Positions 13,568-32,721 are shown, numbered from the stretch's first letter. The stretch: DNA of 64,000 nucleotides from Candidatus Binatia bacterium (GCA_963666515.2 OY762897.2:2176001-2240000), one strand, 5' to 3'. Translations and numbers: made by a program. The notes: generated by a model not told the origin, from the sequence alone.

Positions 13568-13574
13568 GCTGTCC

Positions 13575-15493: not shown

Positions 15494-16147
15494 TCAGCGT
15501 GCGAGTTCCCGGAGTTTCCGTCGAAAGTACTGGAAACTGGGCGATGCGTTGTTTTCCACATCCATCAGCGGAGCGATCCTCTCCGCCCATGCCGACTTTT
15601 CCGCCCCTACTGCCTGCCATCCGTTCGATTTCAGCGCACCTGAACCGCCTGCGAATATGGCGTCAGCCAGAACTTCCCACGTGCCGCAAATCGAGTCGCT
15701 AGCGTAGCGGTTGAGGATATCGACCTTGGCGTTGGGATAGGCCGACCTGATCGCCGGGAGGTCTCCGAGCAGCCACGCTTCACCTTCTTCGATGGCGATG
15801 CAGAATCGAGTGGTCGGTCCAGGATTGCAAGCATTCAGCACGGCAAAGAGTTCCTGCCGAAATGTTTTCTGACACCTGTCGTCCAGGTCGCAAACCAAGA
15901 CCACCGCTGCTGGATAGTCGGCCGGGTAACCGGCAAATGCCCTGCCGTAGCCCTTGAGCAAACGGGGGAGTTGGTCAAGTAAAAGGCGCTTGCTGGCGTC
16001 GGTAACCCTCTTGAGGTTCCTTGGAATACGTCCGATTCCCCGGTATTTGGTCACCTTGAACGTGTGCTCACACCCGATCATCTTCGGGATCAAGATGTCA
16101 AGTGCCCTCTTGCCGGACGCGTCTTCGACAAGTACCTCGAAGTGCAT
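15494..16147 (-). CDS. DUF4276-like TOPRIM-fold partner protein
   Basis: HFEVLVEDASG, VCDLDD, IEEGEAWLLGD, SPSFQYF motifs; starts 4 nt after the ATPase stop. Confidence 0.75.
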   Translation of the reverse strand: MHFEVLVEDASGKRALDILIPKMIGCEHTFKVTKYRGIGRIPRNLKRVTDASKRLLLDQLPRLLKGYGRAFAGYPADYPAAVVLVCDLDDRCQKTFRQELFAVLNACNPGPTTRFCIAIEEGEAWLLGDLPAIRSAYPNAKVDILNRYASDSICGTWEVLADAIFAGGSGALKSNGWQAVGAEKSAWAERIAPLMDVENNASPSFQYFRRKLRELAR

Positions 16148-16151
16148 CCCA

Positions 16152-17442: not shown

Positions 17443-17841
17443 TTATTGGGTGGTAGAGGAGCGGGGCTTCAGCCTCCGTTCTCCGAATCTCCACCGGCCG
17501 TCCGCAAGCGACGCAATCGCGTCTATCTCCATCCAGCCGCCAATCAAGCCGTGGTGATGGCCTGCACCAACAAGCTGCTTTTGGCCAAGCCATCCGAACA
17601 CGAGACAGTGACCGGCATTTCGCAGGGTCCTTTTTAGCCAATCCTCCCGGACCAGCAAAGCCATGTGGCCATCCCCTTCAACGTAGCGCGCTACCGTCTC
17701 TCCACTCGGGATGCGCCACTCGCGAGTGCCCGGGACCCAGCGCAGCTTTCCCGACCTGAACAGAACCGGTGCCGGGGAAAAGGCCGTTACGCCTTCGTCG
17801 ATGGAGCAATCAAGGACATTGCCCTCCCAGTGGTAGTCTTC
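17443..17841 (-). pseudogene. Orphan C-terminal fragment (132 codons) of a large STAND NTPase, Avs2-like
   Basis: Open frame bounded upstream by a TGA at 17842-17844 reads EDYHWEGNVLDCSIDEG...LRW...ALLVREDWLKRTL...LVFGWLGQKQLVG; no start/RBS for the 5' part; overlaps the upstream ATPase tail out of frame. Confidence 0.55.
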
Positions 17842-19088
17842 TCATCGTCAGCCTCGTCGCTGTTTTCGGTGAACGCGAGCGCCGTTTCCATCCACCCTTC
17901 GCTGAGGAGCCGGCCCAGCCCGCCCTGGGATGTTCTAAGCTCCTTGGCGTTGGGCAATTCGGCAACCGGGCGAATGATGGCGTCGTAGGAATCTTCAAGA
18001 CGGCACACGACCGACGTGTTCTCGAACGTGCTGTCGTTGGCGAAAGTCAGCATGTCCGGCGCATGGGTCGTGGTCACGACCTGGACGCTGCCTTTTGCTG
18101 TCTGTCTTTCGATCAGTTCAAGCAACAGCGCCAGCCGCGCGGGGTGAATGCCCGTGTCGATTTCCTCGAAAAAGTACAAACCATGAGGGTTGTCGCCCAG
18201 CAACGCAGCCAACACCGCTAGAAAACGCAGTGTGCCGCCCGAGGCGCTATATGCCGACACCCTTCTTTCCCCGGTCTCAAGAATGTGTAGATGGACTCGG
18301 TCACTTGGATCCGGGAGAAACTCAAGTTTCGCCACGTCCATCGGTGCGAGCTCCCGCAACCAATCGGCCAGAATCGTCCGTCGCGCCTCGTCTGTGCAGA
18401 TTTCCTTCAGAACCGTCGGCAGGTTCTGTCCAAAATCGCCCAATGTGTCCGCGTTCGGGAAGGAGGGTTCGCGCATGAGCTTGGGGGTCAACTCCAGAAA
18501 ACGCATGCCCTGGAAAACACGGAGCACCGGGACTTCGGATAGATCGAAGTATAGATCTGGCTGGTCCAGGAAAAATGCCTGATTCAGAACCGGTTGAGAC
18601 GCGCTCGCGGAATATCCTAGCGGACCGTTCTTCCCATCGAGCGACAATGAGTGGTCAGTTGCTGTCGTCGCCTTGTAGACCCTTCCAGACTCGGTCTCCA
18701 GCTCCTCGCTCACCACGACAAACCTGTCAGGGCCATGAGGCTTGAATCCCACGGTGATCGCGTAAGATGTCCTTTTGCCCGCCAACTCCATCTTGACCTC
18801 GATGGAAAACTCGGATGGCTTCAAGTAGAAGGATGACGGAGAGAAACGAGCGATCTCGTTTGGAGCGCCGCGAATCGGTTCCCATTCCGGTTGGCCCCCG
18901 ACCCCGTGTTTCCCAGCGATGATTTCCTCCAGTGTGTAGCCCCGGCCAATACCGTGAAGGAAGCGGAAGGCGTCGCGGACATTGCTCTTGCCGCTTGCGT
19001 TCGCGCCCACGATCGTCGTGAACGGTCCTACCCGCAACGTCTCATCCGCGAAATTCTTGAAGTTCACGAGGCGGATCGAGGTAATCAT
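17787..19088 (-). CDS. ABC/AAA_21-type ATPase (partner gene apparently lost)
   Basis: GANASGKS, SGGTLR, FEEIDTGIHP, TTHAP motifs; GGAGG RBS before ATG 19088. Confidence 0.85.
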   Translation of the reverse strand: MITSIRLVNFKNFADETLRVGPFTTIVGANASGKSNVRDAFRFLHGIGRGYTLEEIIAGKHGVGGQPEWEPIRGAPNEIARFSPSSFYLKPSEFSIEVKMELAGKRTSYAITVGFKPHGPDRFVVVSEELETESGRVYKATTATDHSLSLDGKNGPLGYSASASQPVLNQAFFLDQPDLYFDLSEVPVLRVFQGMRFLELTPKLMREPSFPNADTLGDFGQNLPTVLKEICTDEARRTILADWLRELAPMDVAKLEFLPDPSDRVHLHILETGERRVSAYSASGGTLRFLAVLAALLGDNPHGLYFFEEIDTGIHPARLALLLELIERQTAKGSVQVVTTTHAPDMLTFANDSTFENTSVVCRLEDSYDAIIRPVAELPNAKELRTSQGGLGRLLSEGWMETALAFTENSDEADDEKTTTGRAMSLIAPSTKA

Positions 19089-19131
19089 CGGCTTTCCTCC
19101 GATTGACGGTTCATGTCCCAAGGGAACCGGA

Positions 19132-22100
19132 TCAAAGGTGCATCTGCCGCGGCTCCTGGACGCCGTCGCGCCCGGCCACATGGTTGCTCACGGCTTCGAG
19201 AATCGCCCGCTCGTCCGATCCGGCATCGGCCAATTCGATCAGCGTCTGGAGGATCTGGTTGAACAAGGGGTTGCGCTGGAGGCCGCGGGTGTCGAGGTAG
19301 TCGTCTACCTTGACCTGATCCCCAGCTCGCCACAGGTGCATGAGCTTGTGCACCTGGTCGATCAAGGGTGCCGGCCGCCCACCCGGAGCTTCGAAACCGA
19401 GGTTGCGGCCACTGCGACGATGCCAGGGTTTGAGCTTTACTTTGGCCCCGGTGCCCGGCTCTCCAACGTCCTCCGACGGGTCCTCCTCATCGTCCGGGTC
19501 GCCGGTCTTCTCTGATTTGGTCAAGAGATCATACTGCCGGACCAGATCCGAATCGGACAGATTGCATGACAGCGCATAGAGAATACATCCGCCAATGGCC
19601 GCTTCCGTCGTACCGAAGTCGTGGCGATGGAGCAGGTAGTATGTGGTGACGTCGTCCAGTCCCGTGGCCGCCTCTTGCCCGTTGGACGACGTGGGAGCGC
19701 TTTCCTGGAACAACACGCGGCCTACTACGAAGTCCACAACCATGCGGCGGACCTCGGTCAAAAACTCCGAGACCGTCATCTGCCGGTCTCGGTCATTCGC
19801 CTTCTTGACGGCCGGATGCTTGCTGAAAGCCTCGAGCGCCGGCCCCGTAGCCGCCCATACGAAATCCGGCCCGCGGATGCCGGCATCCCAGAAGTCACGA
19901 AGTTGCCGGGTGATGTTCTCACGCATCTCGCCGAGGACTACGTTGTCCCAGCCGACACGGGAGGCTGAACGCCTCTTGCAGACTAGCCAAACGGAAGATG
20001 AGAGGGCAGCGGAGGCCATCGCGCGAGTCCTGGTCCCCATCTCCGTCTGGATGGGCCAAGAGCCATCAACTACGAGTCCGGCCCTGATCAGGGCGGCGGC
20101 GAGTGTCTCCCATGCATCCGGCTGCTTGTTGGCGAATACGACTACTAGACGGCCGTCTGGCCGGAGCGCCGCAGCCAGGGAGCGAAACACACGGGCCATG
20201 CCATCTTCGTAGTTTTGCTTCGACCGTTCCTTGTCGCCCCCGAATCGGCTCGCGTCGTCTATGAGTTCACCGTCCTTCTCTTCATGATCCCATTTAGGGC
20301 CGAGCTTGTCCGAGAAAAGCCCATCGACCTCCGACGACAAGCCCGTTACAGATCGCCTCAACCACACGTAGAAGAAATCCATCAGGTCCGAATACGGAAT
20401 TGCATCGTAGTATGGAGGATCGGTGACAATGGCGTCATACTCTCCGGATGCTGCAACCGCGCTGGCGCCCAAGACACTGTTCCCTTCCGCCGATTGAGCC
20501 GCCACCAGTGTGTGGGCAACACAGCGCGAGACCCAATCGAGTGCACCGAGATAGTTGCCGGACGAATCCGACAGCGGATTGACCTCGGTGTAGTCCCACA
20601 CGATGGGGAGTGCGAAGCGCGCAAAGGTATGTCCGAGTTTTTCCCCGCTGTTGTGCCACGAGCAAACTGCGCTGGAGTAGTCGGCCAGCCGGTCGTTGAC
20701 GAGCGCAAGTTGCGCGATCATGGCTTCGCGCCAGCTTTCCGGCCAACCGTCGAGTTCTTGCATAAGGTTCCGAAGGACGAGAGCAAACCGTCCAAGGGTC
20801 AGTAGCTGCCGGTTGGTGAATAGCTTCCGCCAAGTGTCGAGACCGTATAGCGGAACGCGGAACCCAAGAGCCTCCTTGCTCGGCAAGGACTCCTCCGGTA
20901 GCCCGAAAGGAATATCAGCGTAGAGGATCTGGAGTTGTTCATCGGTTACCTCAGCCACAGCACGCTCATGATCCGTAGGCAAGCGGTACTCCTTGCCCTT
21001 CTGGCCATCGACAACCACCGCGGTCATCACCGCACCCAGCCTGCCCGCCCGGCCCTCAAAACGGATGTCCTCCATCGTCATGATCGTGCCGCAGCATGGG
21101 CAGGTGGCTCCGGTGCGCGACATGGTGCCCGCCCCGACACGCCTGTCGTGCTCCCGTCGCTGAGCCGCGTTGCCGCCGTTTTGCGGGACTCCGTTCTGAA
21201 CTCCAAACACGGCCCCAGTGCCGTCGGAGTTCCGATCCATCGTCAGCAGGACGCGCTTTCGTTCCTTCTTGCATAACCAGCGCGTCTTGAGCAGCGGGAG
21301 CGTGGCCCGGCACTGCTTGCAGGTCACGGTACGCGCCCAGAGAAAGGCGACCGTAGGTTTGGCAATCCAGCGCGGGTTTCGCGGGTCCTTGAGGCAGGCG
21401 GCGTCGAATTCCGCGTTGAGCGGGTCGAGTAACGGCAGGCCCCTCTCGTCAACCTCCAGAAGTCGCATGGGGCGCGGTTCAAACTCCAGGCCCGGCGCCG
21501 GCGGCTCGAACTCGGCATAGGTCGGGTAGTACGCCGCCAGTTCCCTGCGCGCCCTTGCCAGCACCCACCGCCCCCAGGCGCGCACCTGCCAGGCCAAGTC
21601 CGCTTCCACCGTCGGATCGTCATGCGCCAATGCATCAAGTTGCATTTCACCGCCGTCGCCGTGGCCGAGGCGTTCCAGGTGAGTCCGCAGGCTCGCGCCC
21701 TTGAACCCCTTGGCCTTGAGGAACGCCTCCATGAACTCCCAGTCTTCCCGGGCAAATTCAGGCAAAGGCCGCGTCTGGCCGGCGAGCTTCTGGGGATATT
21801 CAAGCGTGCACTTGAGGATGAACCAAGCCACCGGGTTGATGTCCATGGCAGTGACTTCACAGCCCAACCGCATGGCTTCGAGGGGAATAGCGCCGCCTCC
21901 GGCAAACGGGTCCAGCACCTTGGGCGCCCGGCCGCCGTACGCATTGCGTATCTCGTCCCTGAACCACGCGAGACCCGGCTGGTTCTCGCGGCCCCAGTGA
22001 AGAATGCCGCCGACGGTCTCCTCTTTCACCGTCTCGACCGTGCGGCCGTTCAAGCGCTTGCGCTCGATCTTCTCCGTGACTCGGCCCGCCATGCGCTCCA

Positions 22101-22329
22101 GGATCGCTCGGCGCTTGTCGGGATCACCGGGATCCGGCAGCAGCGTTGCGATCAACGCCGCCCGCGCCGCCGCCAACGGCCTCCGCGCCGGCCAGATATG
22201 CAGCGTGGAGATGTGCCCGTGCCGCACGTTCTTCTCGTGCACGGAGTCGAGAGACACCTGCTTGAGCGGAAAGGCCGCTTCGATGAGGCGACGGTCGCTC
22301 AAGGCGCCGTCAATGTTCGGCACCGACAT
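19132..22329 (-). CDS. DUF1156-family adenine-specific DNA methyltransferase with Zn ribbon
   Basis: LHIWPARRPL, SAM motif DPFAGGG, catalytic TDPPYY, CKQC/CPCC cysteines. Confidence 0.9.
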   Translation of the reverse strand: MSVPNIDGALSDRRLIEAAFPLKQVSLDSVHEKNVRHGHISTLHIWPARRPLAAARAALIATLLPDPGDPDKRRAILERMAGRVTEKIERKRLNGRTVETVKEETVGGILHWGRENQPGLAWFRDEIRNAYGGRAPKVLDPFAGGGAIPLEAMRLGCEVTAMDINPVAWFILKCTLEYPQKLAGQTRPLPEFAREDWEFMEAFLKAKGFKGASLRTHLERLGHGDGGEMQLDALAHDDPTVEADLAWQVRAWGRWVLARARRELAAYYPTYAEFEPPAPGLEFEPRPMRLLEVDERGLPLLDPLNAEFDAACLKDPRNPRWIAKPTVAFLWARTVTCKQCRATLPLLKTRWLCKKERKRVLLTMDRNSDGTGAVFGVQNGVPQNGGNAAQRREHDRRVGAGTMSRTGATCPCCGTIMTMEDIRFEGRAGRLGAVMTAVVVDGQKGKEYRLPTDHERAVAEVTDEQLQILYADIPFGLPEESLPSKEALGFRVPLYGLDTWRKLFTNRQLLTLGRFALVLRNLMQELDGWPESWREAMIAQLALVNDRLADYSSAVCSWHNSGEKLGHTFARFALPIVWDYTEVNPLSDSSGNYLGALDWVSRCVAHTLVAAQSAEGNSVLGASAVAASGEYDAIVTDPPYYDAIPYSDLMDFFYVWLRRSVTGLSSEVDGLFSDKLGPKWDHEEKDGELIDDASRFGGDKERSKQNYEDGMARVFRSLAAALRPDGRLVVVFANKQPDAWETLAAALIRAGLVVDGSWPIQTEMGTRTRAMASAALSSSVWLVCKRRSASRVGWDNVVLGEMRENITRQLRDFWDAGIRGPDFVWAATGPALEAFSKHPAVKKANDRDRQMTVSEFLTEVRRMVVDFVVGRVLFQESAPTSSNGQEAATGLDDVTTYYLLHRHDFGTTEAAIGGCILYALSCNLSDSDLVRQYDLLTKSEKTGDPDDEEDPSEDVGEPGTGAKVKLKPWHRRSGRNLGFEAPGGRPAPLIDQVHKLMHLWRAGDQVKVDDYLDTRGLQRNPLFNQILQTLIELADAGSDERAILEAVSNHVAGRDGVQEPRQMHL

Positions 22330-22720
22330 GTATGCGCTCCTCAGCCCAGCGAATGACAGACTTGGCAATTTCCAGTGCTTCCTGGTGCTGCTTCTCTGTG
22401 ACGGGAGGTTCGGCGCCGGGGTAGCGAGTAGCGACGGCGAAGTGAGTGAGGCGCTCCGCCTGCCACACTGCTTCGGATATCTCCTCACCCCCTTCTTCAA
22501 GAATCGTCAGCATAACGCCCAAATCATGAATGTAAGGAAACTCGACGTTACGCCGGATCAGCACCGCCTTGATGGCCTTCTCCGCGGCCTGTTGTGCCTG
22601 GGAACACAGATCCTCGATATGGATTTCGGGTCCGCGCAAGCCTGCCAGGGCAAGGCTGCTCTGAGCCCGACTCAGCCACTCTCGCGGATCATCCGGCGGA
22701 AACCGGTCAGGCGGACTCAT
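22310..22720 (-). CDS. HEPN domain protein (toxin of MNT-HEPN pair)
   Basis: QQAAEKAIKA, YIHDL, TRYP motifs; overlaps the MNT gene. Confidence 0.85.
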   Translation of the reverse strand: MSPPDRFPPDDPREWLSRAQSSLALAGLRGPEIHIEDLCSQAQQAAEKAIKAVLIRRNVEFPYIHDLGVMLTILEEGGEEISEAVWQAERLTHFAVATRYPGAEPPVTEKQHQEALEIAKSVIRWAEERIHVGAEH

Positions 22721-23159
22721 AAACGACCTTGCCCTCCTGCAACGCCGGCTTGATGACCAAGGCATGGCTGTCCTTGTAGCGCTCGACGTCCGCCGGCGAG
22801 ACCACAATCGCATCCACGGCGGTCCGCACGCCACGCAAGCCTTCGTAGATTCGCGCGCTGAGTTCGCGGTCGCCTCCTTCCTTGATGATGAGAAGATCGA
22901 CGTCGCTTTGTCCGGTCATGATACCGCGGGCCGCGGACCCGAAGAGTATGATCTTCTCCGGCTGGGCAACCTTCACGACGCGTCGGATAACTTCGTCGAG
23001 AGCCGCTGGGTCCAGTGCCGCTGAACTCAATGCTGCGGCCCTCGAAACCTCTTCCGCGCGGCGACGCGCCGTTCGAGCCGCCCTGTGCATGGCTGCCTCT
23101 GCGCCGATCAAGTCGGAGCTACGAGGCCTTTCCGTCGGCTTCCGATTCCCTGCGCTCAT
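22707..23159 (-). CDS. Minimal nucleotidyltransferase (MNT antitoxin)
   Basis: ILFGSAARG....SDVDLL motif. Confidence 0.88.
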   Translation of the reverse strand: MSAGNRKPTERPRSSDLIGAEAAMHRAARTARRRAEEVSRAAALSSAALDPAALDEVIRRVVKVAQPEKIILFGSAARGIMTGQSDVDLLIIKEGGDRELSARIYEGLRGVRTAVDAIVVSPADVERYKDSHALVIKPALQEGKVVYESA

Positions 23160-23188
23160 CCTTTAACTCCCTCTCCACTGACCGTGGC

Positions 23189-24610
23189 TTACATGAAGAA
23201 CCGGAATTGATAGGGGGTTTTCCCCAAGCTCGGCATACGCTTCACTACACGGGAGAGCACCTTGGCATAGGCCATGGTTACAGGTAGCGGGTCGTATAGC
23301 GCATCATTGTTCCAGTTCATCTTCGACAGCCCAAGCACTGCCCGTACCGTGTCATCCCACGGCCCGTGACCTGCATGGCGAACCAGCCGCACAGGCCTGG
23401 GAGTGCTCCGAGCCCCCTGAAAGTAGGAACCTGATGTGATGCCCGTCACATTACCGTGTGTCCACAGCAACGCGTCTCGTGGTCCAAGCCTGACCACGGT
23501 ACCACGCGGAACCGGGTATGCGGCGCCGCGGCCCTTCTTTTCACCTTGATGACCGGGATCAATGCGGACGCCACGCCAACCAACATCCTCAACCACCTGA
23601 ACGAGATCGACTTCTTCACACAAGTGCAACGCCTCCATACAACCCTCGACTTCGTCCCGTTTGAACTCAGTGGTCTTATGTACCATCACACGCCGGGGCG
23701 GCTGTCCTGCATGACGACGGCGGTAAAGGTCCAGGGAACGCGTCATGACGCGGAACATTTCGGTCCGGGAAAGGAACGGATTGTCTCGCTGGACGTTGAC
23801 CTCATGAGCGTCATAGGCAATGAACTCCAAGCCGGAGCCTTCTTCGTCGAACACCTGACTGCAACACGTCACAAATCGAGGTCGATCGGCCTGAACGGGA
23901 CGGATCGCGTATGAGATGCCTATGTAGGCGGTTCCGGGATCAGCTTCAGCCAACTTCCATGGAACGCCGCCAGCCTTGGCATAAAGCGCAAGACCGACAC
24001 GCCACATCACACTGGCTCGGCAGGGATAAGCAAGTGCCTTGTCCTCTCGGACCAATTGAACAGGGATACGACGTGTGGCGGTGACGGCTTTTAGATGGTC
24101 GTGCAGGTCGAAGTCTCCCTCAACTCCACCGGCGAAGCCGGGTTCCCAGCGTTTGGGAAGGTAGATGAACAAGACGTCGAAATCATTCCGGCGAGATCCA
24201 AGGCTGTGAATCGCCCTCGTCAACGCCTCCGCGAGTACCGTGTAGGGCCTGGGTGAACTACGGAAATCGGACTCGACCCGGGAATCGAGTTCCACGAGGC
24301 AGCCGCTGTCTGCCGGGCCGATGTGCAGCCCAAAGACTCTATGGAATCCTGGCCATTCTGGCAGATAATCAACTCGCTCCTTTGGTTTATACGTCGTTTT
24401 CAGCTTCTTCATGAATCCGTAAAGACGTTCGCTCTCACCGGCTGGTGCCAGCGTGGCCACCCTTATTGGGTCAGGGACGCAACCCGCTGAGTGAGGACCG
24501 AACTTCAACAGCCCGTAGAGCGGATGAGGCGTTCGATCCGAACTACGGTCGGGATGAAAGCTCAACTGAGGCTCAGACAACCACATGTGGGGGCTGATCT
24601 CGAAACTCAC
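23189..24610 (-). CDS. Short prokaryotic Argonaute (MID-PIWI, catalytically inactive)
   Basis: 473 aa; MID YAKAGGVPWKL, PIWI IGISYA (no catalytic Asp), HKTT, LSKMNWN, LPVT, C-terminal YQFRFFM. Confidence 0.92.
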   Translation of the reverse strand: MSFEISPHMWLSEPQLSFHPDRSSDRTPHPLYGLLKFGPHSAGCVPDPIRVATLAPAGESERLYGFMKKLKTTYKPKERVDYLPEWPGFHRVFGLHIGPADSGCLVELDSRVESDFRSSPRPYTVLAEALTRAIHSLGSRRNDFDVLFIYLPKRWEPGFAGGVEGDFDLHDHLKAVTATRRIPVQLVREDKALAYPCRASVMWRVGLALYAKAGGVPWKLAEADPGTAYIGISYAIRPVQADRPRFVTCCSQVFDEEGSGLEFIAYDAHEVNVQRDNPFLSRTEMFRVMTRSLDLYRRRHAGQPPRRVMVHKTTEFKRDEVEGCMEALHLCEEVDLVQVVEDVGWRGVRIDPGHQGEKKGRGAAYPVPRGTVVRLGPRDALLWTHGNVTGITSGSYFQGARSTPRPVRLVRHAGHGPWDDTVRAVLGLSKMNWNNDALYDPLPVTMAYAKVLSRVVKRMPSLGKTPYQFRFFM

Positions 24611-26349
24611 GACATCGTCCTCCGCGAAAAGGCAGTGGTACGCGAAAGCTCAAATATGGCATCGATCCCACCTTCGACATCCAACGCACGCATCTCCGTC
24701 CCGTTCCGTCCCAAGTATCCCGCCCAAAAATCAATGAGCCCGTTCAGCATTCGATTGTAGCGCTTGACAGTCCGCTCACGAGCGAAATCTGCCGCCGCGG
24801 CCTTGTTCTCGTAATTCACTCCCTCGAACACGGTCGCTGGCTCGATCAATAGCCAGAGCTTGTCATCGGCCCAACCTAGACGAATGGCGATGCCTTCGCT
24901 CCACAGCAGATCCCGATCACCATTGACCGTGCCGTTCAATCTTCCCACCAAATTCTCCAAGGGTTTCCAGACGACATCGCTCGGATTGGCCGGCGACAGT
25001 AGGTCCGTACCCCTGCGATGTCGCCGTATAAGGTCACACTCCCGCGCTAGCGCCACCGTCAAGGCTTCGCGTAAGAAACCGCGTTCGTTGGAATCGTATC
25101 TTTGTTTCCTGACGTCCAACGTGTGGATATCGAATTCGCTAATGTCCTTACCTTCAAATGCAGCCCGCACGTCGGCATCAGCACCAAAGGCCAAAACCCC
25201 GACTCCGGAGCGAACAGCGAGCACATTGACCCCAGCTTCCTGAACTGCTTGGCGTACCTCCGAAGTTCCACCTATTTCACAAACCACCCTCCTGCATGTG
25301 TTCGGCACTTTGACCAGAGGTAAGGCGTTGAGTCGTACGACCGGCCAACCGCGACGCCGGACTTGTGGAAGCGGTGCAGGACTCCAATGTCTGCGCTCCG
25401 TGGCGAAGTCATCAAGCACTTTGGTATCGATGCTCTCAAAAAGGCGCATCAAATCTCGCAAAGTCTCGTCGAAGTTCTCGATAACGACCAACGCCGTCTC
25501 AACCCCCGCTTCCTTCCCTCGATCCAAGAGTCTTTGAACACGTGTCAAGGGGGGTTGCTCACCACGGTGTAACCAAAAAAATCCGGAGGGAAACGCCCTT
25601 TGACACGTGATCGCCTCCTCCAAAGTGTCCATGATCGAGTCGTCACGCCCGCTGTATCCCGCAACCACAAGTCCAAATCGCTGGCATTGGGCGATCATTG
25701 CTTGTCTCAGGCGTTGATCTTGATGTCTTAATTCGTCGTCCGTGTTCTTCAATCGGCGGGATCGGAAATCGCCATGTAGCTTTACCTCGAGTGGCCAGCG
25801 CTCGTCGGCTATCGCTTGTTCGGCCAAATCCGGGGCGTCGAGAGCCGCTGTGGTTAACGCACCTGTGGTGTCATATATCTTTGCACAGGCGTCGGCTACC
25901 AGTGCATCGAAGTTTGTAGTCCAGACGATGCGCATCAGTTCGGCGTACATCAACGTAGCGAGCGCCATGTGACCATAAGACGGTTTCGCTCCCGCCAATT
26001 TCGCACGCAAAAACGCTTGGCGGTCCTTTTCGGCAGGATACGCAGCTTCGAATAGCTGAGCGTACTCGTCCGGAGCACCCGGCTTAGGGGATTGCTCCAT
26101 GGAATCGATGTGGCCCTGGAGCTGATCACGCACCATGGGCTGGGAAAGATCTGCTACGGTTTGATACGAGCCCCGACGTTGACTGACGAAAAGCGTCTGT
26201 TTGAACTCCCATATCATGTCCATGGCAGTAGGAACACCGGCCGCAGCAGAACTCCCAGCGCCAAGGAACCACATCAGACTTCGCGCCCGCATGGAGAAAC
26301 GACGCGCGAAGTCATCCAGTGTGATTCTTGGAGTATCTGATTCCTGCAA
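24607..26349 (-). CDS. SIR2-APAZ NADase effector (SPARSA-type)
   Basis: FLGAGSS, WTTNFD, KLHGDF, GYSGRD sirtuin motifs; C-terminal APAZ-like region; TTG start with AGGAGG RBS; stop overlaps the pAgo start. Confidence 0.9.
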   Translation of the reverse strand: MQESDTPRITLDDFARRFSMRARSLMWFLGAGSSAAAGVPTAMDMIWEFKQTLFVSQRRGSYQTVADLSQPMVRDQLQGHIDSMEQSPKPGAPDEYAQLFEAAYPAEKDRQAFLRAKLAGAKPSYGHMALATLMYAELMRIVWTTNFDALVADACAKIYDTTGALTTAALDAPDLAEQAIADERWPLEVKLHGDFRSRRLKNTDDELRHQDQRLRQAMIAQCQRFGLVVAGYSGRDDSIMDTLEEAITCQRAFPSGFFWLHRGEQPPLTRVQRLLDRGKEAGVETALVVIENFDETLRDLMRLFESIDTKVLDDFATERRHWSPAPLPQVRRRGWPVVRLNALPLVKVPNTCRRVVCEIGGTSEVRQAVQEAGVNVLAVRSGVGVLAFGADADVRAAFEGKDISEFDIHTLDVRKQRYDSNERGFLREALTVALARECDLIRRHRRGTDLLSPANPSDVVWKPLENLVGRLNGTVNGDRDLLWSEGIAIRLGWADDKLWLLIEPATVFEGVNYENKAAAADFARERTVKRYNRMLNGLIDFWAGYLGRNGTEMRALDVEGGIDAIFELSRTTAFSRRTMS

Positions 26350-26393
26350 TCCCTCCTCCTATGCCGCTTCCGCAATCCTTCTGTCCCGGTCCA

Positions 26394-26987
26394 TCAGTCT
26401 GGCAATCCACGGAAGGCATTACGAAGATCCGCTATGAAACGCTGAAAGGACCTGTCCACACTTGCCACGCGGTCGATTTCCATATGCCGGACAATCTCAT
26501 CCGCGTATTCGATACCCCCGAGCCTCGGTACCGTTTCGGTAGCTCTAATGGCCTCGATCAGTCGTTCCTTGTAGCGGCTTCGGGCGCACTTCTGGTCGGG
26601 TGCATCGCAGCCCTTTCCGAACACAGCCTTGAACGCTGCCCCATCCAACAGCAACCAGCGCTCTATGTGGGGATCAGGTATGGCGAGGATAAGCGTGGGT
26701 TTGTCTCGACTCCTTTTGGCTTGGCTCCTTACTTCCTGCGCTCGTCGGTTCAAGCCCCTGCAGTTGGCGTCGGTGGCTACAACGAGCAGATCAGGCCACG
26801 GACTACCTTGGCGCTCGAGATCACTTATGTAGTCCTTGAGCTTTCCGACAACTTTGCCGTAGCCGCCTACGGCGTTGCGCCAATTGAGCCGTATGGAGAC
26901 ACCGTATTCCGCGGCGATCCTCTCCACGAGTGTCCCGATCACCTGCCGATGCGCGTAGTCCTCAACGAACAGCGCAATCTCACGCAT
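26394..26987 (-). CDS. Small TOPRIM-like/DUF4276-like partner of ATPase
   Basis: ALFVED, VATDAN, PDPHIERWLL motifs; overlaps the ATPase stop. Confidence 0.65.
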   Translation of the reverse strand: MREIALFVEDYAHRQVIGTLVERIAAEYGVSIRLNWRNAVGGYGKVVGKLKDYISDLERQGSPWPDLLVVATDANCRGLNRRAQEVRSQAKRSRDKPTLILAIPDPHIERWLLLDGAAFKAVFGKGCDAPDQKCARSRYKERLIEAIRATETVPRLGGIEYADEIVRHMEIDRVASVDRSFQRFIADLRNAFRGLPD

Positions 26988-28290
26988 CGAAATCTCCTCT
27001 CAGAATGCGTTCAGACACGGCTGGTGCGTCCTGCTGGTCCGATAGTGCCTCATCGATCCCAATCCGTCGTCCCAATGGCCCCCAAACAGAAAACGAGTCG
27101 ATCCGAGTCCTTCGGTCGATCCGATTCATCACGAACAGGGAGCTGTCCTCCAACATATCAGGCAGGATGGGCGAGTGCGTCGTGACAACGTACTGGGTCG
27201 TCTTCAGGACCTCCTGAGTCTTGAGAAGCTCAGCGATGAGCTGGATTCGACGAGGGTGAACGCCGTTTTCTGGTTCTTCGAAACCCACAAGCGCAGGGGC
27301 CTCGTCAACACCGGTCAACGCTAGAAGCCCGAGCATCCGCAGTGTCCCTTCCGAGAGTACGCGAGCGGGGAACGCAACACCGCCTTCCCGGAGGCGAAGC
27401 TCCACCTCACCGAGATCGCTAACCTCCACTTCGATGCCGTCGATGTTCGGCATCAACAGATTGAGCGCCTTCTCAATGCCTTTGAACTGTCTCTCATCCG
27501 TGGCCTTCATGGTGTTGAGGAACGCTGCGAGCTCTTCTCCCATCAAGCCGATATGGCGGACTTCCTTTACCGGATTGGCGGCACGCATGCGTTCGCGCGG
27601 CTCGAAGTAGAAAAACAACCAACTCTCCAACTCGCGCCGTGCAGCCACCAAATGGGGATAGTGTGGCGGATAATGCGGCATGGAGAGGATGCTATGATCC
27701 AGATAACGGTCGAAATAGGTGGGGTGCGCTTGCCCTTCGTGGCGGAGGTGTATTCTTCCGCCTTGTCTTTCGAGAAAAGGCTTGCGCTTGCCCGTGGGCT
27801 CTCCCTTGCTGTTGAGCGCAGCCAGATACTCGTCGGCAACACGCAACACGCCCGACCTGGGCAGCATTTCCACCTCAATGCGGTACCGCAAGTCGCGTTC
27901 ACGAACGCGCGCTGGCACCTTGCTCTGCTTCTGGGAGACTCCGGCATCGTTTGGTCGACGCATTTCTCGGATCTGGCGATCGACGAACTTTACCACGCTG
28001 TCCGACAAGCTCAGATCGGCTTCGATTGAAAACGACAACCGCTCTTGCTCCAGCAAACCCTTGATCCCTGTTTGCCCTATCGTAAAGGACTCCAGCGGCT
28101 TTCCACGATAAGGAGGCTCAAAGGCTTCTTTGAGCGTCCGGCTCGTCACTAGCTTTGACAACAATTGCAAAGCGTCAAGTAGATTGCTCTTGCCGGCGGC
28201 ATTCGGCCCAAACAGGACGACAAGCTGAGACAGACTCACTTCAACGTCTTCAAGGGACTTGTACCCTCGTATTTGTACGCGCTTCAGCAT
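26980..28290 (-). CDS. ABC/AAA_21-type ATPase
   Basis: GPNAAGKS, LSEGTLR, FEEPENGVHP, TTHSP motifs. Confidence 0.88.
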   Translation of the reverse strand: MLKRVQIRGYKSLEDVEVSLSQLVVLFGPNAAGKSNLLDALQLLSKLVTSRTLKEAFEPPYRGKPLESFTIGQTGIKGLLEQERLSFSIEADLSLSDSVVKFVDRQIREMRRPNDAGVSQKQSKVPARVRERDLRYRIEVEMLPRSGVLRVADEYLAALNSKGEPTGKRKPFLERQGGRIHLRHEGQAHPTYFDRYLDHSILSMPHYPPHYPHLVAARRELESWLFFYFEPRERMRAANPVKEVRHIGLMGEELAAFLNTMKATDERQFKGIEKALNLLMPNIDGIEVEVSDLGEVELRLREGGVAFPARVLSEGTLRMLGLLALTGVDEAPALVGFEEPENGVHPRRIQLIAELLKTQEVLKTTQYVVTTHSPILPDMLEDSSLFVMNRIDRRTRIDSFSVWGPLGRRIGIDEALSDQQDAPAVSERILRGDFDA

Positions 28291-28320
28291 GTTTCCCCCT
28301 CCAGGACTCCAATCAAGCAA

Positions 28321-28381
28321 TCCTCAGCTTGGCGAAGGATCGCCTTGGCGATTTCCAGTGCCTCCTGGTGCTGCTTTTCTG
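28321..28381 (-). pseudogene. Diverged duplicate of the HEPN gene 3' end
   Basis: 51/61 nt identical (hand alignment) to 22338-22398; encodes EKQHQEALEIAKAILRQAE versus EKQHQEALEIAKSVIRWAE. Confidence 0.8.
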
Positions 28382-28420
28382 CAGCGGCACGGCTGCTCTC
28401 TGCTCGGTTCACACCCGGCT

Positions 28421-28783
28421 CTACCCAGCCAGCGGAACAATCCTTGAACCGCGGATGACCCGATCCCGCGTCAGTAACGGCACGTCATGCACGATGCTGG
28501 TGGCGGCGATGATCTCGTCCGCGGGATCGCCCTTGAAGTCCAGTCGGGTCGAGGCTCGCGCAACGGCGAAATCGATCGGCCACACGTGCACGCGGTTCAA
28601 TACACGGACCACTTCACGGTCGTCGAGGTCCACATCCAACCGACCCAGTTGGACGAGCTTGGCCAATTCCCACAAGACTATGGCCGAAATGGACCACGGA
28701 CTCCCCGTCAATAGACTCTGCTCGGAACGTTGGAGGTTGCCGTCCATCGCGAAGACGAGAATATGCGTGTCAAGATTGAGCAT
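28421..28783 (-). CDS. PIN-domain toxin (VapC family)
   Basis: NLDTHIL, SAIVLWE, DPADEIIAAT, LLTRD motifs. Confidence 0.9.
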   Translation of the reverse strand: MLNLDTHILVFAMDGNLQRSEQSLLTGSPWSISAIVLWELAKLVQLGRLDVDLDDREVVRVLNRVHVWPIDFAVARASTRLDFKGDPADEIIAATSIVHDVPLLTRDRVIRGSRIVPLAG

Positions 28784-28994
28784 TTGCGTCCCAGGAAACG
28801 CCGGTCGTCAGGATATCTCCCCGAATCTTGATCTTGTGTCGCAGGCTACCGATCAGATCAGCGCATTGCCGGTCGTAGGGGACCACCCGGGCGACAGGCT
28901 TGCCACGCTTCGTAACGATCAACCCTTCCGTGTCAAGGCTGTCCAGCAATGCCAGGCACTGCTCTTTGAACTTGGCGGCTCCAATCGTCTTCAT
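28770..28994 (-). CDS. Phd/YefM family antitoxin
   Basis: MKTIGAAKFK...VTKRGKPVARVVP; overlaps the PIN gene. Confidence 0.9.
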   Translation of the reverse strand: MKTIGAAKFKEQCLALLDSLDTEGLIVTKRGKPVARVVPYDRQCADLIGSLRHKIKIRGDILTTGVSWDANAQS

Positions 28995-29088: not shown

Positions 29089-32000
29089 TCAGTTGATTCC
29101 CGCCTGTTCCGCTGCCTCCATGACCGCACCCGCCGTGATGGTAAACGCGAGCGACTCCCGTCCCTTGACCAGCAGCTTCGCGAACGGATCGCGTACCCTT
29201 ACCAGCCGAGGGTTGGGCGTGGCGCAGTCGAAGACCACGTAGAGCCAGTACCGACCCCGAAGGTTGCAGGCCCTGGACCACTCGTTTTCCTGCATCTCCA
29301 CGCTGCCGGTGCGCGCGCGGCCTTTGACTTCGATGGCTCGTTCTTCCCCGAGACGGCGGGATCTGAGATCGAAGCCCGGCCAATCGGTCAGGCCGGCGCG
29401 GCGTGCGAGTTCGGGGCGCGATACGTCGGCGACCTCGGCGCCGAAGCGCTCCTCGTAGGCAGTGGCCACCTGCATTGCGACGGCTTCCACGTCGGAGTCG
29501 TATCGCTCGGTCTCGCCGGTGTCCTGTACGGGCACCACGAGAGCGTGGGCGAGCAACTCGACCTCTCCGGCCTGGATGAGGTCCGGCTCGGCTTCCAACG
29601 CGGCCAACGCGCGGTTGCGGTGGCTTGTCAGGCTCCGCTGCCGTTCCTTGACTCTCGAAAGCTCGGCGTTGGCACGGGGGTCACCCGCGCGCGCCTTCTC
29701 CCCGAGACGCGCGCGGGCCGCGGTCAGCTCCGCGGCACGAAAGTCGAACCCGCGCTTGACGAAGTCGACGCGGGCGGGGAGGTCTTCCGTGCGACGCTGC
29801 CGGTGCGACTGGACAAGCCGGTCCAGCACGAACTCCCGTGCGTAAGTCACGGCATCCTGGACCATGCCGCGCGCCAGGGTCGCGAGGGGAACTCGGCTCG
29901 GCGCGAAGCCATGTGCGCCTCTGAGCAACAGCAGGTGCTCGACCGGACACTCCTCCACGGCGCCGTCGTTGGACTGGCGCAGCCCGGTAAGCCTCGACTC
30001 CAGAGTCTTCGAGGCTGACTGTTCGCGCTGTTCCACCGTCACCCGTGCGACGTGGAACAGGTACGGCTCGGTTGCATAAGGGTCGGTGAACACGGCGCCC
30101 CGAAGACCGTCCCGGCCGAAACGGTCCAGGACGGTAACCGACAGAGCGTCGAACAGCGGCTCGCCGGGGTGCAGCCAGACAGCGTCTTCACGGGTCGCCG
30201 GCTTGTAGACCGTAAGACGTTGCCGCGCAGGCTCGGCGTACCGTTCGAGGGCGGGCAGCAGCGGGTCGCCGGCGCCGGGACGGTCGGAAACGAATGCGAA
30301 GGTCGTTTCCGGATCGCCTTCGATACGGAGGTTCAGCAACGGCGCCACCTTTTCCACGAAACGGCGGACGTAGCCGGGCAGAAGCCGCCGGTAGTTCTCC
30401 TGCTCCGCCTCATCCTTGAGGTCGTCGAGTCTTCCGCGCACGTCCCCGCCCTGCCCGTAGAGCACACGCTCCCTTTCCTCCAGAGCCCGGACCTGCTCCT
30501 CGGTCAGGTGTCCCTCCAACTGCTGGACAACGGCTTCCGCATCGTCCGTGACAGCCTGCTCAAGGTAGTCCTTCATGGAGACGCCCTCGAACAGGCGGCC
30601 CACCACGTCGAACACCTTGTCGGACTGAAGCCTGCGGCGCATGGCCTCCAGCTTGTCGAGCAGCGTCTTGAGCACCCTGCCCTCGCGCGTGCCGCCGGCC
30701 ACCAGATTGACGATGACCACCGGATCGTGACGCTGGCCGTAGCGATGGATGCGGCCCATCCGCTGCTCCAGCCGCGCCGGGTTCCAGGGGATGTCGTAGT
30801 TGACCATGAGCCAGCAGAACTGCAGGTTGATCCCCTCACCCGCGGCATCCGTGGCCACCAGGTAGCTGGCTCCGCCTTCGGCCGCTGGCCGCCGGAAGAA
30901 CTCGACTTGCCGTTCCCGTTCCTGGTACGGCAGGCCGCCGTGGATCAGCGCGACGCGGCCGGTGAAGCCCAGACCTTCGAGGCGGCGCACTAGGAATTCC
31001 GCGGTGTCGCGGTGCTCGGTGAAGACGATGAACTTCTCGTCGGCGTAGCGAGGATCGCGGAGCACTTCGCGCAACTTCTCGAACTTGGACTCCTCGCCGG
31101 CATCGAAAAGCCGTCGCGCCTTGTCGAGCAACTCCTCGACCTTCAGACGCTCGGTCTCCAACTCCCCGAGAGTCACCGCGACCGTAGCGCCGAGCGCCTG
31201 GCTTTCGAACTCCTCGTGCTGCTCGCCCCGGTCCTCGATCGACGCATCCTCGTCCGCGGTGCGACTCTCGAAGACGTCCTCAATATCGTCCAGGTTCCGC
31301 TGAAGGCGGGCGAGCGCTTCCTCGGTGAGCCCCCCGTCCCGAATGTCTTCGATCAGCCCCTCGATCTTGTCCAACCGGCGCTCGAAAGACCGCATCAGGG
31401 CATACGTGGAGCTGGCCAAGCGCCGCTGGAAGACGCTCATGGCCAAGCGGGCCGCGGACCGGTTCAGCACCCGAGCCCGGTTGTAGTAGAAGCGGAGGTA
31501 CTCGGTCGCGTCGTCGTAGAGTTCCTGTTCACCTTCCCGCCCCTGAGACAGGTCGTAACTCAGCGTGTCGCAGTTGCGCTGCGGATACAGCGGAGCACCA
31601 TCAAGATGAACCAGCTCCTCCTTGGTCCGGCGGATGAAGTGCCTCGGCCGCGAATCGCGGGCAAACGCATCGAACGCGTCGCCGGTCGAGAGCGTGTCGG
31701 GAAGCAGCAGCCGCCACAGGAAGTAGTAGGGGTGGTCCTTGCCCATGTGCGGCGTTGCGGTCAGCAGCAACAGATGCTGAGCAGACCACGGTAGTCTCCA
31801 CCGGTCACCGTCCACCTCGGCGCCCGCCAATGCCTCCGCCAGCCGGTAACGGTCGGTCTTCCGCACCCGGAAGTCGGGCTGGCGATCCGCGGAGAGCTTG
31901 TGCGCTTCGTCGAAGACCACAAGGTCGTAAGGCTGCGTCGCCGCATCCTTGAGGCAACCGAACAGCCTTTCTCCGGCCAGGGTGTCGACGCTGACGATGA

Positions 32001-32661
32001 CGTGATCGCCCTCGGGACCGGCGAACGGGTTGCCTACGCGCGCATCCGCGCCGCTGACGATGCGGAACGGCAGGCGAAACAGCGTGCGCATCTCCCGCTC
32101 CCAGTTTCCCACCAGGCCGGCGGGCGGCACGATGAGCACGCGGCGGATGAGCCGCCGGGACAGCATCTCGCGTACGTACAGGCCCGTCATGATGGTCTTC
32201 CCCGCCCCTGCATCGTCGGCAAGCAGAAAGCGCAGGGGAGCTTGCCGCAGCATCTGCTCGTAGACGGCGATTCGCTGATGGGGAAGCGGGTCGATCAGTG
32301 AAGTCTCGGTGGCGAAAGCAGGGTTGAAGAGGTGACCGTAGGCAAGCCGATGCGCCTCGGCGACGGCGGAGACTGCGTCGGGGTTGGCGGAGAAGTCGAG
32401 GCTGGGCGGAGTCGTCGGACCGGCATCGTATTCGACTTCGGTCCCTTCCATCACGTGGTCGGGTTGGGTCTCGATCTCCGCGATTCGCCGCCATGCCAGC
32501 TTGTTTGGACGGGACTGCCCGTTCTCCCAGCGATTGACGGTGACGTAGGATACCCCGACAAGCTCCGCGAACTGCGTTTGCGTGAGACCCTTGACTCCCC
32601 GCACACGTCTGATTCGCTGCGGGAAGTCCTCGGCCAAGTCGGGGGATACGAGAGGCGACAT
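29089..32661 (-). CDS. SNF2-family helicase with N-terminal XRE HTH and C-terminal DUF3883 (PD-(D/E)XK-like) domain
   Basis: LTQTQFAELVGVSYVTVNRWENG HTH; LLADDAGAGKT, FDEAH, EQRMGRIHRYGQ helicase motifs; GFDLRS..IEVKGR. Confidence 0.9.
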   Translation of the reverse strand: MSPLVSPDLAEDFPQRIRRVRGVKGLTQTQFAELVGVSYVTVNRWENGQSRPNKLAWRRIAEIETQPDHVMEGTEVEYDAGPTTPPSLDFSANPDAVSAVAEAHRLAYGHLFNPAFATETSLIDPLPHQRIAVYEQMLRQAPLRFLLADDAGAGKTIMTGLYVREMLSRRLIRRVLIVPPAGLVGNWEREMRTLFRLPFRIVSGADARVGNPFAGPEGDHVIVSVDTLAGERLFGCLKDAATQPYDLVVFDEAHKLSADRQPDFRVRKTDRYRLAEALAGAEVDGDRWRLPWSAQHLLLLTATPHMGKDHPYYFLWRLLLPDTLSTGDAFDAFARDSRPRHFIRRTKEELVHLDGAPLYPQRNCDTLSYDLSQGREGEQELYDDATEYLRFYYNRARVLNRSAARLAMSVFQRRLASSTYALMRSFERRLDKIEGLIEDIRDGGLTEEALARLQRNLDDIEDVFESRTADEDASIEDRGEQHEEFESQALGATVAVTLGELETERLKVEELLDKARRLFDAGEESKFEKLREVLRDPRYADEKFIVFTEHRDTAEFLVRRLEGLGFTGRVALIHGGLPYQERERQVEFFRRPAAEGGASYLVATDAAGEGINLQFCWLMVNYDIPWNPARLEQRMGRIHRYGQRHDPVVIVNLVAGGTREGRVLKTLLDKLEAMRRRLQSDKVFDVVGRLFEGVSMKDYLEQAVTDDAEAVVQQLEGHLTEEQVRALEERERVLYGQGGDVRGRLDDLKDEAEQENYRRLLPGYVRRFVEKVAPLLNLRIEGDPETTFAFVSDRPGAGDPLLPALERYAEPARQRLTVYKPATREDAVWLHPGEPLFDALSVTVLDRFGRDGLRGAVFTDPYATEPYLFHVARVTVEQREQSASKTLESRLTGLRQSNDGAVEECPVEHLLLLRGAHGFAPSRVPLATLARGMVQDAVTYAREFVLDRLVQSHRQRRTEDLPARVDFVKRGFDFRAAELTAARARLGEKARAGDPRANAELSRVKERQRSLTSHRNRALAALEAEPDLIQAGEVELLAHALVVPVQDTGETERYDSDVEAVAMQVATAYEERFGAEVADVSRPELARRAGLTDWPGFDLRSRRLGEERAIEVKGRARTGSVEMQENEWSRACNLRGRYWLYVVFDCATPNPRLVRVRDPFAKLLVKGRESLAFTITAGAVMEAAEQAGIN

Positions 32662-32665
32662 ATGA

Positions 32666-32721
32666 CTATTGCACCACAGAACCGAGGACACGATATCGGA
32701 ATTATGTCTCGTGTGCAATAG
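32666..32721 (-). promoter_or_regulatory. Putative promoter and inverted repeat upstream of the defence operon
   Basis: - strand TTGCAC (32713-32718), 17 nt, TATCGT (32690-32695); perfect 9-bp inverted repeat CTATTGCAC (32666-32674) / GTGCAATAG (32713-32721); locally AT-rich. Confidence 0.5.

Follow-up and report, generated by a model that had tools for sequence, protein, structure and literature searches.

SPARSA systems consist of a SIR2-APAZ protein and a short prokaryotic Argonaute (pAgo), which together form a textbook heterodimer. The closest described example is that of Geobacter sulfurreducens, for which the SIR2-APAZ/Ago-guide RNA-target DNA complex has been solved (8IN8; PMC10474274). 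In the published accounts, residues N142 and H186 of GsSir2 are catalytic and H186 is positioned through tetramerisation (PMC11452484), while H166 of GsAgo stacks on the 5' base of the guide (PMC10474274). A second body of work concerns Hma, named as a 'candidate' or 'putative' defence system (Payne et al. 2021, PMC8565338), which in 931 of 1,485 surveyed systems (62.7%) carries embedded genes (Payne et al. 2024, bioRxiv 10.1101/2024.01.29.577857). Here we describe a SPARSA gene pair located between hmaA and hmaB in a genome of a Candidatus Binatia bacterium (GCA_963666515.2). The window, meaning the whole stretch of DNA that was analysed, comprises 64,000 nucleotides (OY762897.2:2176001-2240000), and all positions are counted from its first letter. 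Our preferred reading, to which we assign a probability of about 70%, is that an autonomous, functional-looking SPARSA is carried as passenger cargo of an Hma scaffold.

The gene for SIR2-APAZ, predicted to be both the NADase effector and the short pAgo's APAZ partner (24607..26349, minus strand; 580 aa, TTG start), lies directly upstream of the co-oriented pAgo gene (23189..24610, minus strand; 473 aa, GTG start). The stop codon of the former and the start codon of the latter overlap in the 4 nt GTGA, and GGAGG occurs a few bases 5' of the start codon in both genes. An earlier note on this DNA, made from the sequence alone, had recognised here a complete SPARSA system, composed of a 580-aa sirtuin with intact TTNFD and KLHGDF motifs that is coupled to a 473-aa MID-PIWI protein. 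Both reading frames were recovered, with TTNFD at residues 144-148 and KLHGDF at residues 190-195 of SIR2-APAZ, and the profile comparison that the note had proposed for the PIWI and APAZ domains was run. SIR2-APAZ matched the PADLOC profile Aga_SIR2-PNTD1-PNTD2 at 1e-184 (protein residues 18-578 on profile positions 1-557 of 558) and the Pfam family SIR2_2 at 8.2e-13. The pAgo matched the PADLOC profile pAgo_I at 8e-194 (residues 3-473 on positions 3-457 of 457), and its Pfam Piwi match was sub-threshold (19.3 bits, under the cut-off of 28.9). Among solved structures, the pair matched 8IN8 (chains B and C) and its sister entries best: SIR2-APAZ aligned with 8in8_B at 9.8e-71 (residues 10-575 on 5-580) and pAgo with 8in8_C at 1.7e-109 (residues 4-473 on 7-473). 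These full-length matches, together with the conserved residues, support the assignment of the pair as a complete SPARSA system, as predicted from the protein sequences.

The same alignments define the domain layout. APAZ is C-terminal to SIR2, as the alignment to GsSir2-APAZ reaches residue 575 of 580 and 557 of the 558 positions of the SIR2-PNTD1-PNTD2 profile are covered. The pAgo consists of MID and PIWI without N or PAZ, given its full-length alignment to the 473-aa GsAgo chain. In SIR2-APAZ, N146 and H192 align with N142 and H186 of GsSir2 (hand count along the 8in8_B alignment). For the slicer site, an alignment of 10 short pAgos was compared by hhalign with the Argonaute of Thermus thermophilus (TtAgo, plasmid NC_005838), which gave a probability of 92.7%, an E-value of 4.3e-7 and 236 aligned columns; the short pAgo spans just TtAgo residues 418-663 of 685. 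Opposite D478, D546 and D660, which we take to be the slicer aspartates and whose local motifs GFDAG, LRDG and LADR agree with that numbering, the window protein has A235 (S233 without a 2-column gap), T313 and K450, all of them non-acidic. The DEDX tetrad is thus missing in PIWI as judged from three Asp positions, the equivalent of E512 falling in a poorly aligned loop; the absence of the catalytic Asp proposed in the earlier note is thereby borne out. The MID pocket is intact: H170, K174, Q185 and K212 lie opposite TtAgo R418, K422, Q433 and K457, presumably the contacts of the guide 5'-phosphate, and all four are invariant among the 10 short pAgos. By alignment H170 is also the counterpart of GsAgo H166. 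From the non-acidic slicer positions and the conserved 5'-phosphate pocket, the protein is a predicted guide-binding, non-slicing short pAgo with an inactive slicer site.

The window pair shares its two-gene operon with the SPARSA of Geobacter sulfurreducens (GsSir2/Ago; 8IN8, 8JKZ, 8JL0, 8K87, 8K88, 8Y7Z, 8Y80, 8Y82), along with the catalytic N (TTNFD) and H (K[IL]HGDF), the guide-stacking His and the inactive PIWI. The proteins are 580 and 473 aa long in the window and 584-587 and 473 aa in the Geobacter chains, and because these lengths are nearly equal, the window SPARSA has no added domain. The two pairs have diverged in sequence, and on reading the alignment Y168 of GsSir2, a reported tetramer-interface residue, is not conserved in the window SIR2-APAZ. 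They also differ in host, which for the window is a high-GC bacterium with nearest relatives in Candidatus Binatia, and the window SPARSA is nested inside Hma, while the Geobacter pair was compared at the protein level. SPARTA systems are likewise made of a short pAgo and an APAZ-fused NADase, with TIR in place of SIR2 as the effector.

By homology to Geobacter, SIR2-APAZ and the short pAgo would form a heterodimer in which the MID pocket of pAgo grips the 5'-phosphate of a small guide RNA. Base-pairing between guide and single-stranded invader DNA would then lead to tetramerisation, which would bring H192 beside N146 in the SIR2 domain, and the resulting hydrolysis of NAD+ would arrest growth of the infected cell. 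The statement of the earlier note that SPARSA depletes NAD+ after guide-RNA-directed recognition of single-stranded DNA agrees with the descriptions in PMC11452484 and PMC10474274. Within the preferred reading, Hma would act first, by discriminating self from non-self through methylation, and the cargo modules would act independently as second-line or abortive defences. What was observed are the identities of the genes, the conserved residues, the architecture and the distribution; from these, all activities are predicted, as is that SPARSA works autonomously in this host.

Positions 23123-27612 were reproduced without any difference by a contig from a public run, and a run of a different study held pieces 92-99% similar to pAgo, SIR2-APAZ, Phd/PIN and hmaA. 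Because of these public-run contigs, the locus is not an assembly chimera, and a near relative of the composite exists elsewhere.

The window contains one hmaA, one hmaB and one hmaC, all on the minus strand, and PADLOC and Pfam agree on them, so that PADLOC calls a candidate Hma system. The earlier note had placed SPARSA between a helicase and a methylase. The SNF2/DUF3883 gene (29089-32718) and the DUF1156 gene (longest form 19132-22500) do flank it; the gap between them, however, holds three more two-gene modules that went unmentioned. The eight genes between hmaA and hmaB form four such modules (Phd/PIN, ATPase/DUF4276, SIR2-APAZ/pAgo and MNT/HEPN), and SPARSA is separated from its neighbours by 44 nt on the SIR2-APAZ side, where the DUF4276 gene ends, and by 29 nt on the pAgo side. 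Six further open reading frames (ORFs) lie between hmaB and hmaC, among them three further ABC ATPases, one strong HEC-01B/DUF4276 partner and a 250-aa ORF. Altogether the low-GC, single-strand island extends over about 22 kb and holds about seven passenger modules: SPARSA itself, Phd/PIN, MNT/HEPN and four cassettes built on an ABC ATPase, which in three cases has a DUF4276-type partner.

Defences nested within Hma are a published class of architecture. In the 2024 survey (bioRxiv 10.1101/2024.01.29.577857), 22.8% of the embedded genes belong to known defence systems and 96.7% are co-oriented with the scaffold; a pair of ABC ATPase and TOPRIM was named HEC-01 (Hma-embedded candidate 01), which gave no protection in the assay of that study. 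The common known cargo in its main text is Septu. The meaning of embedding "remains to be explored" according to the same preprint, which names as possible explanations a genomic sink, selfish linkage, backup and co-regulation. The window agrees with the Hma systems of that survey in its one-strand hmaA, hmaB and hmaC and in its co-oriented cargo, including an HEC-01-type ATPase with a TOPRIM-like/DUF4276 partner, and differs from them in holding more genes per gap. The survey allowed at most three embedded genes between adjacent hma genes, a detection threshold and not a biological criterion, which the window exceeds with 8 genes in one gap and 6 ORFs in the other; a locus this loaded would be missed under that rule. 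Argonaute is not named as cargo in the main text of the survey, where the word appears once, in the introduction, although Figure 1D or the supplements may list pAgo, and a pAgo inside Hma is not described in the texts of Payne et al. 2021 and 2024. Our literature search for Argonaute with DUF1156, or for a short pAgo coupled to Hma, found none, at the level of titles and the starts of abstracts for the latter combination. The earlier note knew of no description of such coupling; the embedding in Hma itself had been described, whereas Argonaute as its cargo had gone unnamed in that main text. A second defence nested within a modification-based system is likewise seen in PrrC, which lies in the type I restriction-modification (R-M) system EcoprrI, and in BrxU, which lies in BREX, and the preprint cites both as precedents for a benefit of embedding. 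For PrrC, it reports an established physical and regulatory link to the R-M enzyme; for SPARSA and Hma, what is shown is their co-location in the genome.

The same genome encodes both systems a second time, apart from each other. A second SPARSA (L109, G000:C1:4535000-4554999; SIR2-APAZ at 7754-9526 and pAgo at 9523-10935) is 40% identical to the window in pAgo and 32% in SIR2-APAZ, and lies outside Hma; its neighbour at 1.7 kb, on the opposite strand, is a type I R-M system (HsdS, HsdM, HsdR). A second Hma (L108, G000:C1:4405000-4424999), 31-35% identical to that of the window and with one in-frame TGA inside the hmaB match, has among its cargo a 569-aa protein of the GmrSD family, a DUF488 protein and one of the Schlafen/AlbA_2-HATPase_c_4 type; pAgo is missing.

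Recurrence of the association was assessed in a pAgo-centred sample of species genomes with 70 loci, in which Hma was sought by tblastn with the Hma proteins of the window and then by PADLOC. The nearest relatives belong to Candidatus Binatia (80-90% identity). Hma genes stand beside SPARSA in 8 of the 70 loci, mostly as one Hma subclade in Candidatus Binatia; at least 5 kb is available on either side in 46 loci, five of which are Hma-linked. Three linked loci from Binatia (L001, L002, L015) have Hma 75-86% identical to the window, a fourth (L036) is 56-60% identical, and L058, from a gammaproteobacterium, 57-59%. The remaining three are L028, a 6-kb contig from Verrucomicrobiota with hmaC immediately 5' of SIR2-APAZ, and L060 and L065 from Actinomycetes, in which a fragmented SPARSA lies upstream of fragmented hmaA and hmaB. 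Two more loci, L023 and L055, were set aside: their SNF2 helicases, 28% identical to HmaA, clustered with it, were unconfirmed as Hma and were not counted. In a separate sample of the phylum, HmaB-family matches occurred in 53 of 401 genomes and pAgo_I matches in 8. One of the latter, G067, encodes in the order hmaA-hmaB-hmaC-TIR-APAZ-pAgo a SPARTA pair right after hmaC (L103, G067:C75:1-20000, 3782-17868, minus strand; TIR-APAZ 1.4e-136, short pAgo PDLC02378 1.3e-202), with hmaB in two pieces. This pAgo is 26% identical to that of the window, which instead sits between hmaA and hmaB. The earlier note had named restriction of the co-location to this genome as counting against its proposal, and the co-location is not so restricted: Hma flanks SPARSA in several sampled species, and SPARTA follows hmaC in a genome of the same phylum.

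Among 80 metagenome SPARSA loci, 22 of which have at least 5 kb on both sides, tblastn searches using Hma proteins of three mutually divergent sets found Hma genes in none. The sole match, in L114, was rejected, as PADLOC calls the helicase DrmD (4.4e-204) and not HmaA. At 10116-19695 this contig carries a SPARSA pair, then a 2,535-aa ORF with a weakly TmtA-like N-terminus and then the DISARM-type DrmD helicase, which is another modification-type neighbour of SPARSA. As a further observation, an identical pAgo occurs in L006-L011, which stem from four named Sphingomonas species, an unclassified 'bacterium' contig of a metagenome-assembled genome (MAG; L011) and a contig labelled Arthrobacter sp. 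TPD3018. Two more loci, L017 and L066, fall in the same group at 95% or more, L066 being a 269-aa pAgo fragment from a Mesorhizobium MAG. The sharing among L006-L011 and L066 suggests either that transfer was very recent or that the odd records are contaminated.

The content and the integrity of the linked loci vary. SPARSA is broken in 5 of the 8 Hma-linked loci and in 13 of the 62 unlinked ones, a comparison weakened by MAG errors and shared ancestry. L001 has a frameshift, L015, L060 and L065 are fragments, and in L058 two insertions of 429-aa DDE_Tnp_1 transposase ORFs (5275-6564 and 8599-9888, minus strand) interrupt SIR2-APAZ and pAgo; hmaA was not found within 10 kb upstream in that locus. 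In L001, a zeta-toxin-like gene and AbiJ/PDC-S32 take the place of the MNT/HEPN pair of the window, and Phd/PIN is missing. Among the sampled Hma beyond the Binatia group that carries SPARSA, the nearest is L104 from the same class (62-65% identity), which has at the same junction an NsnC-like gene and ORFs without assignment, and in which SPARSA is missing.

The history of the association was followed in two trees. The pAgo tree was built by a quick method from 64 rows, with pAgo pieces shorter than 280 aa, L015 among them, excluded. Its 9 Hma-linked rows require 6 changes of label, and no fewer than 5 are imposed by strongly supported branches; the mean for shuffled labels is 8.4, and 12 of 500 shuffles gave a number as low. 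The window groups with L001 and L002, with the unlinked L016 and the short-contig locus L005 nested within, L036 and L058 form a second clade, and L028, L060, L065 and the SPARTA pAgo stand separately. In the HmaB tree (33 rows; L015, L036, L065 and L103 were excluded, their best high-scoring segment pair having a stop or fewer than 450 aa), the window, L001, L002, L104, L058 and L092 form a well-supported subclade, and no pAgo_I match was found in the genome of L092. In our reading of these trees, a single Hma subclade captured SPARSA once, long ago, after which the two were transferred together and SPARSA was occasionally lost; besides this, at least three further juxtapositions of SPARSA or SPARTA with Hma arose separately.

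That SPARSA is an autonomous system carried as cargo is supported by the 62 of 70 genome loci without Hma, by the second SPARSA outside Hma and by the second Hma without pAgo. Its cargo status is further supported by low GC, by bracketing with a 61-nt repeat, by the variable cargo among close relatives and by L104, and its position follows from the tendency of gaps between hma genes to accumulate defence cassettes. Being linked to Hma, SPARSA is co-transferred and probably co-transcribed with it; a shared biochemical pathway is not implied. Several observations weigh against this reading. In Hma relatives as diverged as L036 and L058 (56-60% protein identity), SPARSA likewise occupies the hmaA-hmaB gap, upstream of hmaB and in these two right next to it, and a position kept in Hma diverged this far suggests long retention. 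Separate juxtapositions exist, with SPARSA after hmaC (L028), SPARTA after hmaC (L103) and a decayed SPARSA before hmaA (L060, L065). In an unbiased clustering of neighbours (1,070 flanking ORFs, 62 dereplicated locus groups), Hma families were the top recurrent neighbours after the SPARSA genes themselves: HmaA-like genes were present in 7 loci, with the assignment to Hma unconfirmed for 2, HmaB genes in 6 and HmaC genes in 5. For comparison, an ABC transporter was present in 5 loci, Fic in 4, and type I HsdR and HsdM, RadC and a resolvase in 3 each. These counts are lower bounds, because longest-ORF calls fell on the wrong strand in high-GC loci (hmaB of L058, hmaC of L036, DUF4276 of L001 and L002), and tblastn was used in parallel. 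The DUF499 and DUF1156 genes, for whose enrichment the earlier note had proposed a survey, are among these recurrent neighbours; 62 of 70 genome loci and all 80 metagenome loci are without Hma. In the phylum sample, pAgo_I lies within 7 kb of hmaB in 2 of the 8 genomes with pAgo_I (the window genome and G067), and since Hma is typically not near other defence systems (bioRxiv 10.1101/2024.01.29.577857), the repeated adjacency of SPARSA and Hma is possibly non-trivial. Taken at their strongest, these points would describe a recurrent, selected partnership, in which SPARSA and SPARTA were placed independently inside or after hma operons in several lineages; the helicase may then expose invader single-stranded DNA for pAgo, or pAgo may serve as an abortive arm once Hma has been evaded. 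We regard such a partnership as unlikely. If it were true, Hma and short pAgo would make up a composite two-tier system and not a scaffold with cargo.

The coupling proposed in the earlier note, in which HmaA would unwind or process unmethylated invader DNA and so supply single-stranded targets or guides to SPARSA, with NAD+ depletion as the outcome, appears to us distinctly improbable. It is consistent with the single strand and tight spacing within the gene array, with the activation of SPARSA by single-stranded DNA targets (PMC11452484), with SPARSA having been retained in the hmaA-hmaB gap throughout one Hma subclade (window, L001, L002, L015, L036, L058), with the independent short-pAgo/Hma juxtapositions, one of them a SPARTA pair, and with the label changes forced among the nine labelled rows of the pAgo tree. 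The loci without Hma, of which the 22 well-flanked metagenome ones are informative, argue against it, as do the absence of SPARSA from L104, a near Hma relative nested in the SPARSA-carrying subclade, and the higher share of broken copies beside Hma, a share that includes MAGs and non-independent kin. Unrelated cassettes occupy the same gaps, the proteins show no domain or length change relative to those of Geobacter, and the Geobacter SPARSA was studied as a pair on its own (PMC11452484, PMC10474274). A looser, regulatory or layered coupling without shared chemistry has a minor but appreciable chance of being correct: the island would be co-transcribed, perhaps under control of the HTH of HmaA, and the cargo would serve as backup when Hma is evaded or inhibited, in resemblance to PrrC inside EcoprrI or BrxU inside BREX. 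The single strand, the overlaps of MNT with HEPN and of HEPN with hmaB, the short gaps at SPARSA and the HTH_3 domain at residues 36-81 of HmaA fit this view, the preprint discusses backup and co-regulation and reports high co-orientation (bioRxiv 10.1101/2024.01.29.577857), and the other SPARSA of the genome also lies near a modification system. On the other side, promoter- and terminator-like sites occur at shuffle frequency, at least one internal promoter is suggested by the strong -35/-10 match that precedes Phd/PIN (29048-29020), and the turnover of cargo among close relatives argues against a tuned circuit. Very improbable, finally, is that the island is a decaying relic with a SPARSA that does not function in this organism. 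The frameshifted, fragmented or insertion-interrupted copies in other Hma-linked loci and a HEPN remnant, which marks a past rearrangement in the window, would agree with decay, but both SPARSA ORFs and the three hma ORFs are full length, catalytic residues are kept, and the public-run contig matches the region without difference. On the preferred reading of SPARSA as autonomous cargo, the window offers an intact example of a known system in a little-studied phylum and an unusually crowded case of defences inside Hma. The recurrence of short pAgos as cargo or neighbours of Hma in several lineages, and the extreme loading of this locus, may be new. Were the linkage functional, a modification-based system would be feeding an Argonaute sensor; if it is not, the locus is mainly a natural catalogue of candidate defence cassettes.

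The scaffold proteins were assigned as follows. hmaA (29089..32718, minus strand; 1209 aa) encodes an N-terminal HTH_3, an SNF2/DEAD helicase core and a C-terminal NOV_C (DUF3883) domain, with matches to PADLOC HmaA (3.6e-169) and to Pfam Helicase_C, SNF2-rel_dom, ResIII, NOV_C (7.9e-14) and HTH_3 (6.7e-10). hmaB (19132..22329, minus strand) encodes a DUF1156 DNA methyltransferase (PADLOC HmaB 9.5e-122; Pfam DUF1156 1.7e-18). Translation probably begins with the ATG at 22329, the longest possible ORF extending to 22500, and DUF1156 lies at residues 19-81 of the shorter form. hmaC (10268..13591, minus strand; 1107 aa) encodes a DUF499 ATPase (PADLOC HmaC 1.1e-68; Pfam DUF499 4.1e-17).

In the gap between hmaA and hmaB, a Phd/YefM-type antitoxin gene (28770..28994, minus strand; 74 aa; Pfam PhdYeFM_antitox 4.1e-7) overlaps the start of the gene for a PIN-domain toxin (28421..28783, minus strand; 120 aa; Pfam PIN 3.2e-12). 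These are followed by a HEC-01A-like ABC-type ATPase of the AAA_21/AAA_15 type (26980..28320, minus strand; 446 aa; AAA_21 4.6e-28; PADLOC HEC-01A 6e-56) and by its DUF4276 partner, which is weakly HEC-01B-like (26394..26987, minus strand; 197 aa; DUF4276 6e-9; HEC-01B 1e-6). Beyond SPARSA lies a HEPN-MNT pair, with a minimal nucleotidyltransferase (MNT)-like gene (22707..23159, minus strand; 150-aa ORF; Pfam Polbeta 1.2e-9, NTP_transf_2 3.4e-8) and a HEPN gene (22310..22720, minus strand; 136 aa from the ATG at 22720; Pfam HEPN 1e-25), the latter overlapping both the MNT stop and the hmaB start. Like Phd/PIN, MNT/HEPN is a toxin-antitoxin-like pair. The gap between hmaB and hmaC begins with a PDC-M07A-like ABC-type ATPase (17787..19181, minus strand; 464 aa; PADLOC PDC-M07A 1.1e-57; Pfam AAA_21, SMC_N). 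The HEC-01 layout of an ABC ATPase followed by a TOPRIM-like partner is present in the next two genes, HEC-01A (16152..17423, minus strand; 423 aa; PADLOC HEC-01A 4.6e-184) and HEC-01B/DUF4276 (15494..16309, minus strand; longest ORF 271 aa with the domain from residue 55; PADLOC HEC-01B 1.6e-93), with a weaker match to it beside SPARSA. A fourth ABC-type ATPase (14204..15457, minus strand; 417 aa; PADLOC HEC-01A 1.2e-38; Pfam AAA_21 1.7e-28) and an ORF that is possibly its partner (13575..14327, minus strand; 250 aa; weak PADLOC HEC-01B 6e-4; without a Pfam family) complete the set.

The GC content falls to 0.56-0.62 between about 14 and 30 kb, compared with 0.65-0.69 on either side. A tRNA-Arg (CCG) with an unusual length of 92 nt was detected by ARAGORN at 33923-34014 (plus strand), 1.2 kb past the hmaA start, and may mark the island boundary; a repeat search found no att-like direct repeats at the island ends tied to the tRNA. 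Repeat search and pairwise alignment revealed a 61-nt direct repeat, 84% identical, at 22338-22398 and 28321-28381. The left copy is the 3' end of HEPN just before hmaB. The right copy is a remnant of the HEPN end immediately before the ATPase start codon, where a 42-aa ORF (28284-28412) resembles the HEPN C-terminus. The two copies flank a 5,983-bp block of ATPase, DUF4276, SIR2-APAZ, pAgo, MNT and HEPN, and may be the recombination scar of cassette rearrangement or movement. The -35/-10 match at 29048-29020, just upstream of the Phd gene, reads TAGACA-17-TATAAT. Over positions 21500-33500, promoter- and terminator-like sites numbered 3 and 10, against 2.7 and 10.3 in shuffles; as this is no excess, they were not taken as evidence. 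Contig depth at 90% or more likeness (runs X1, X2 and X5; window positions 13500-33400) was several-fold higher than over SPARSA where hmaA (about 30100-32100) and hmaB (about 21500-22800 and 18800-19500) are conserved, and because of this excess the samples are taken to contain many related Hma genes of other organisms.

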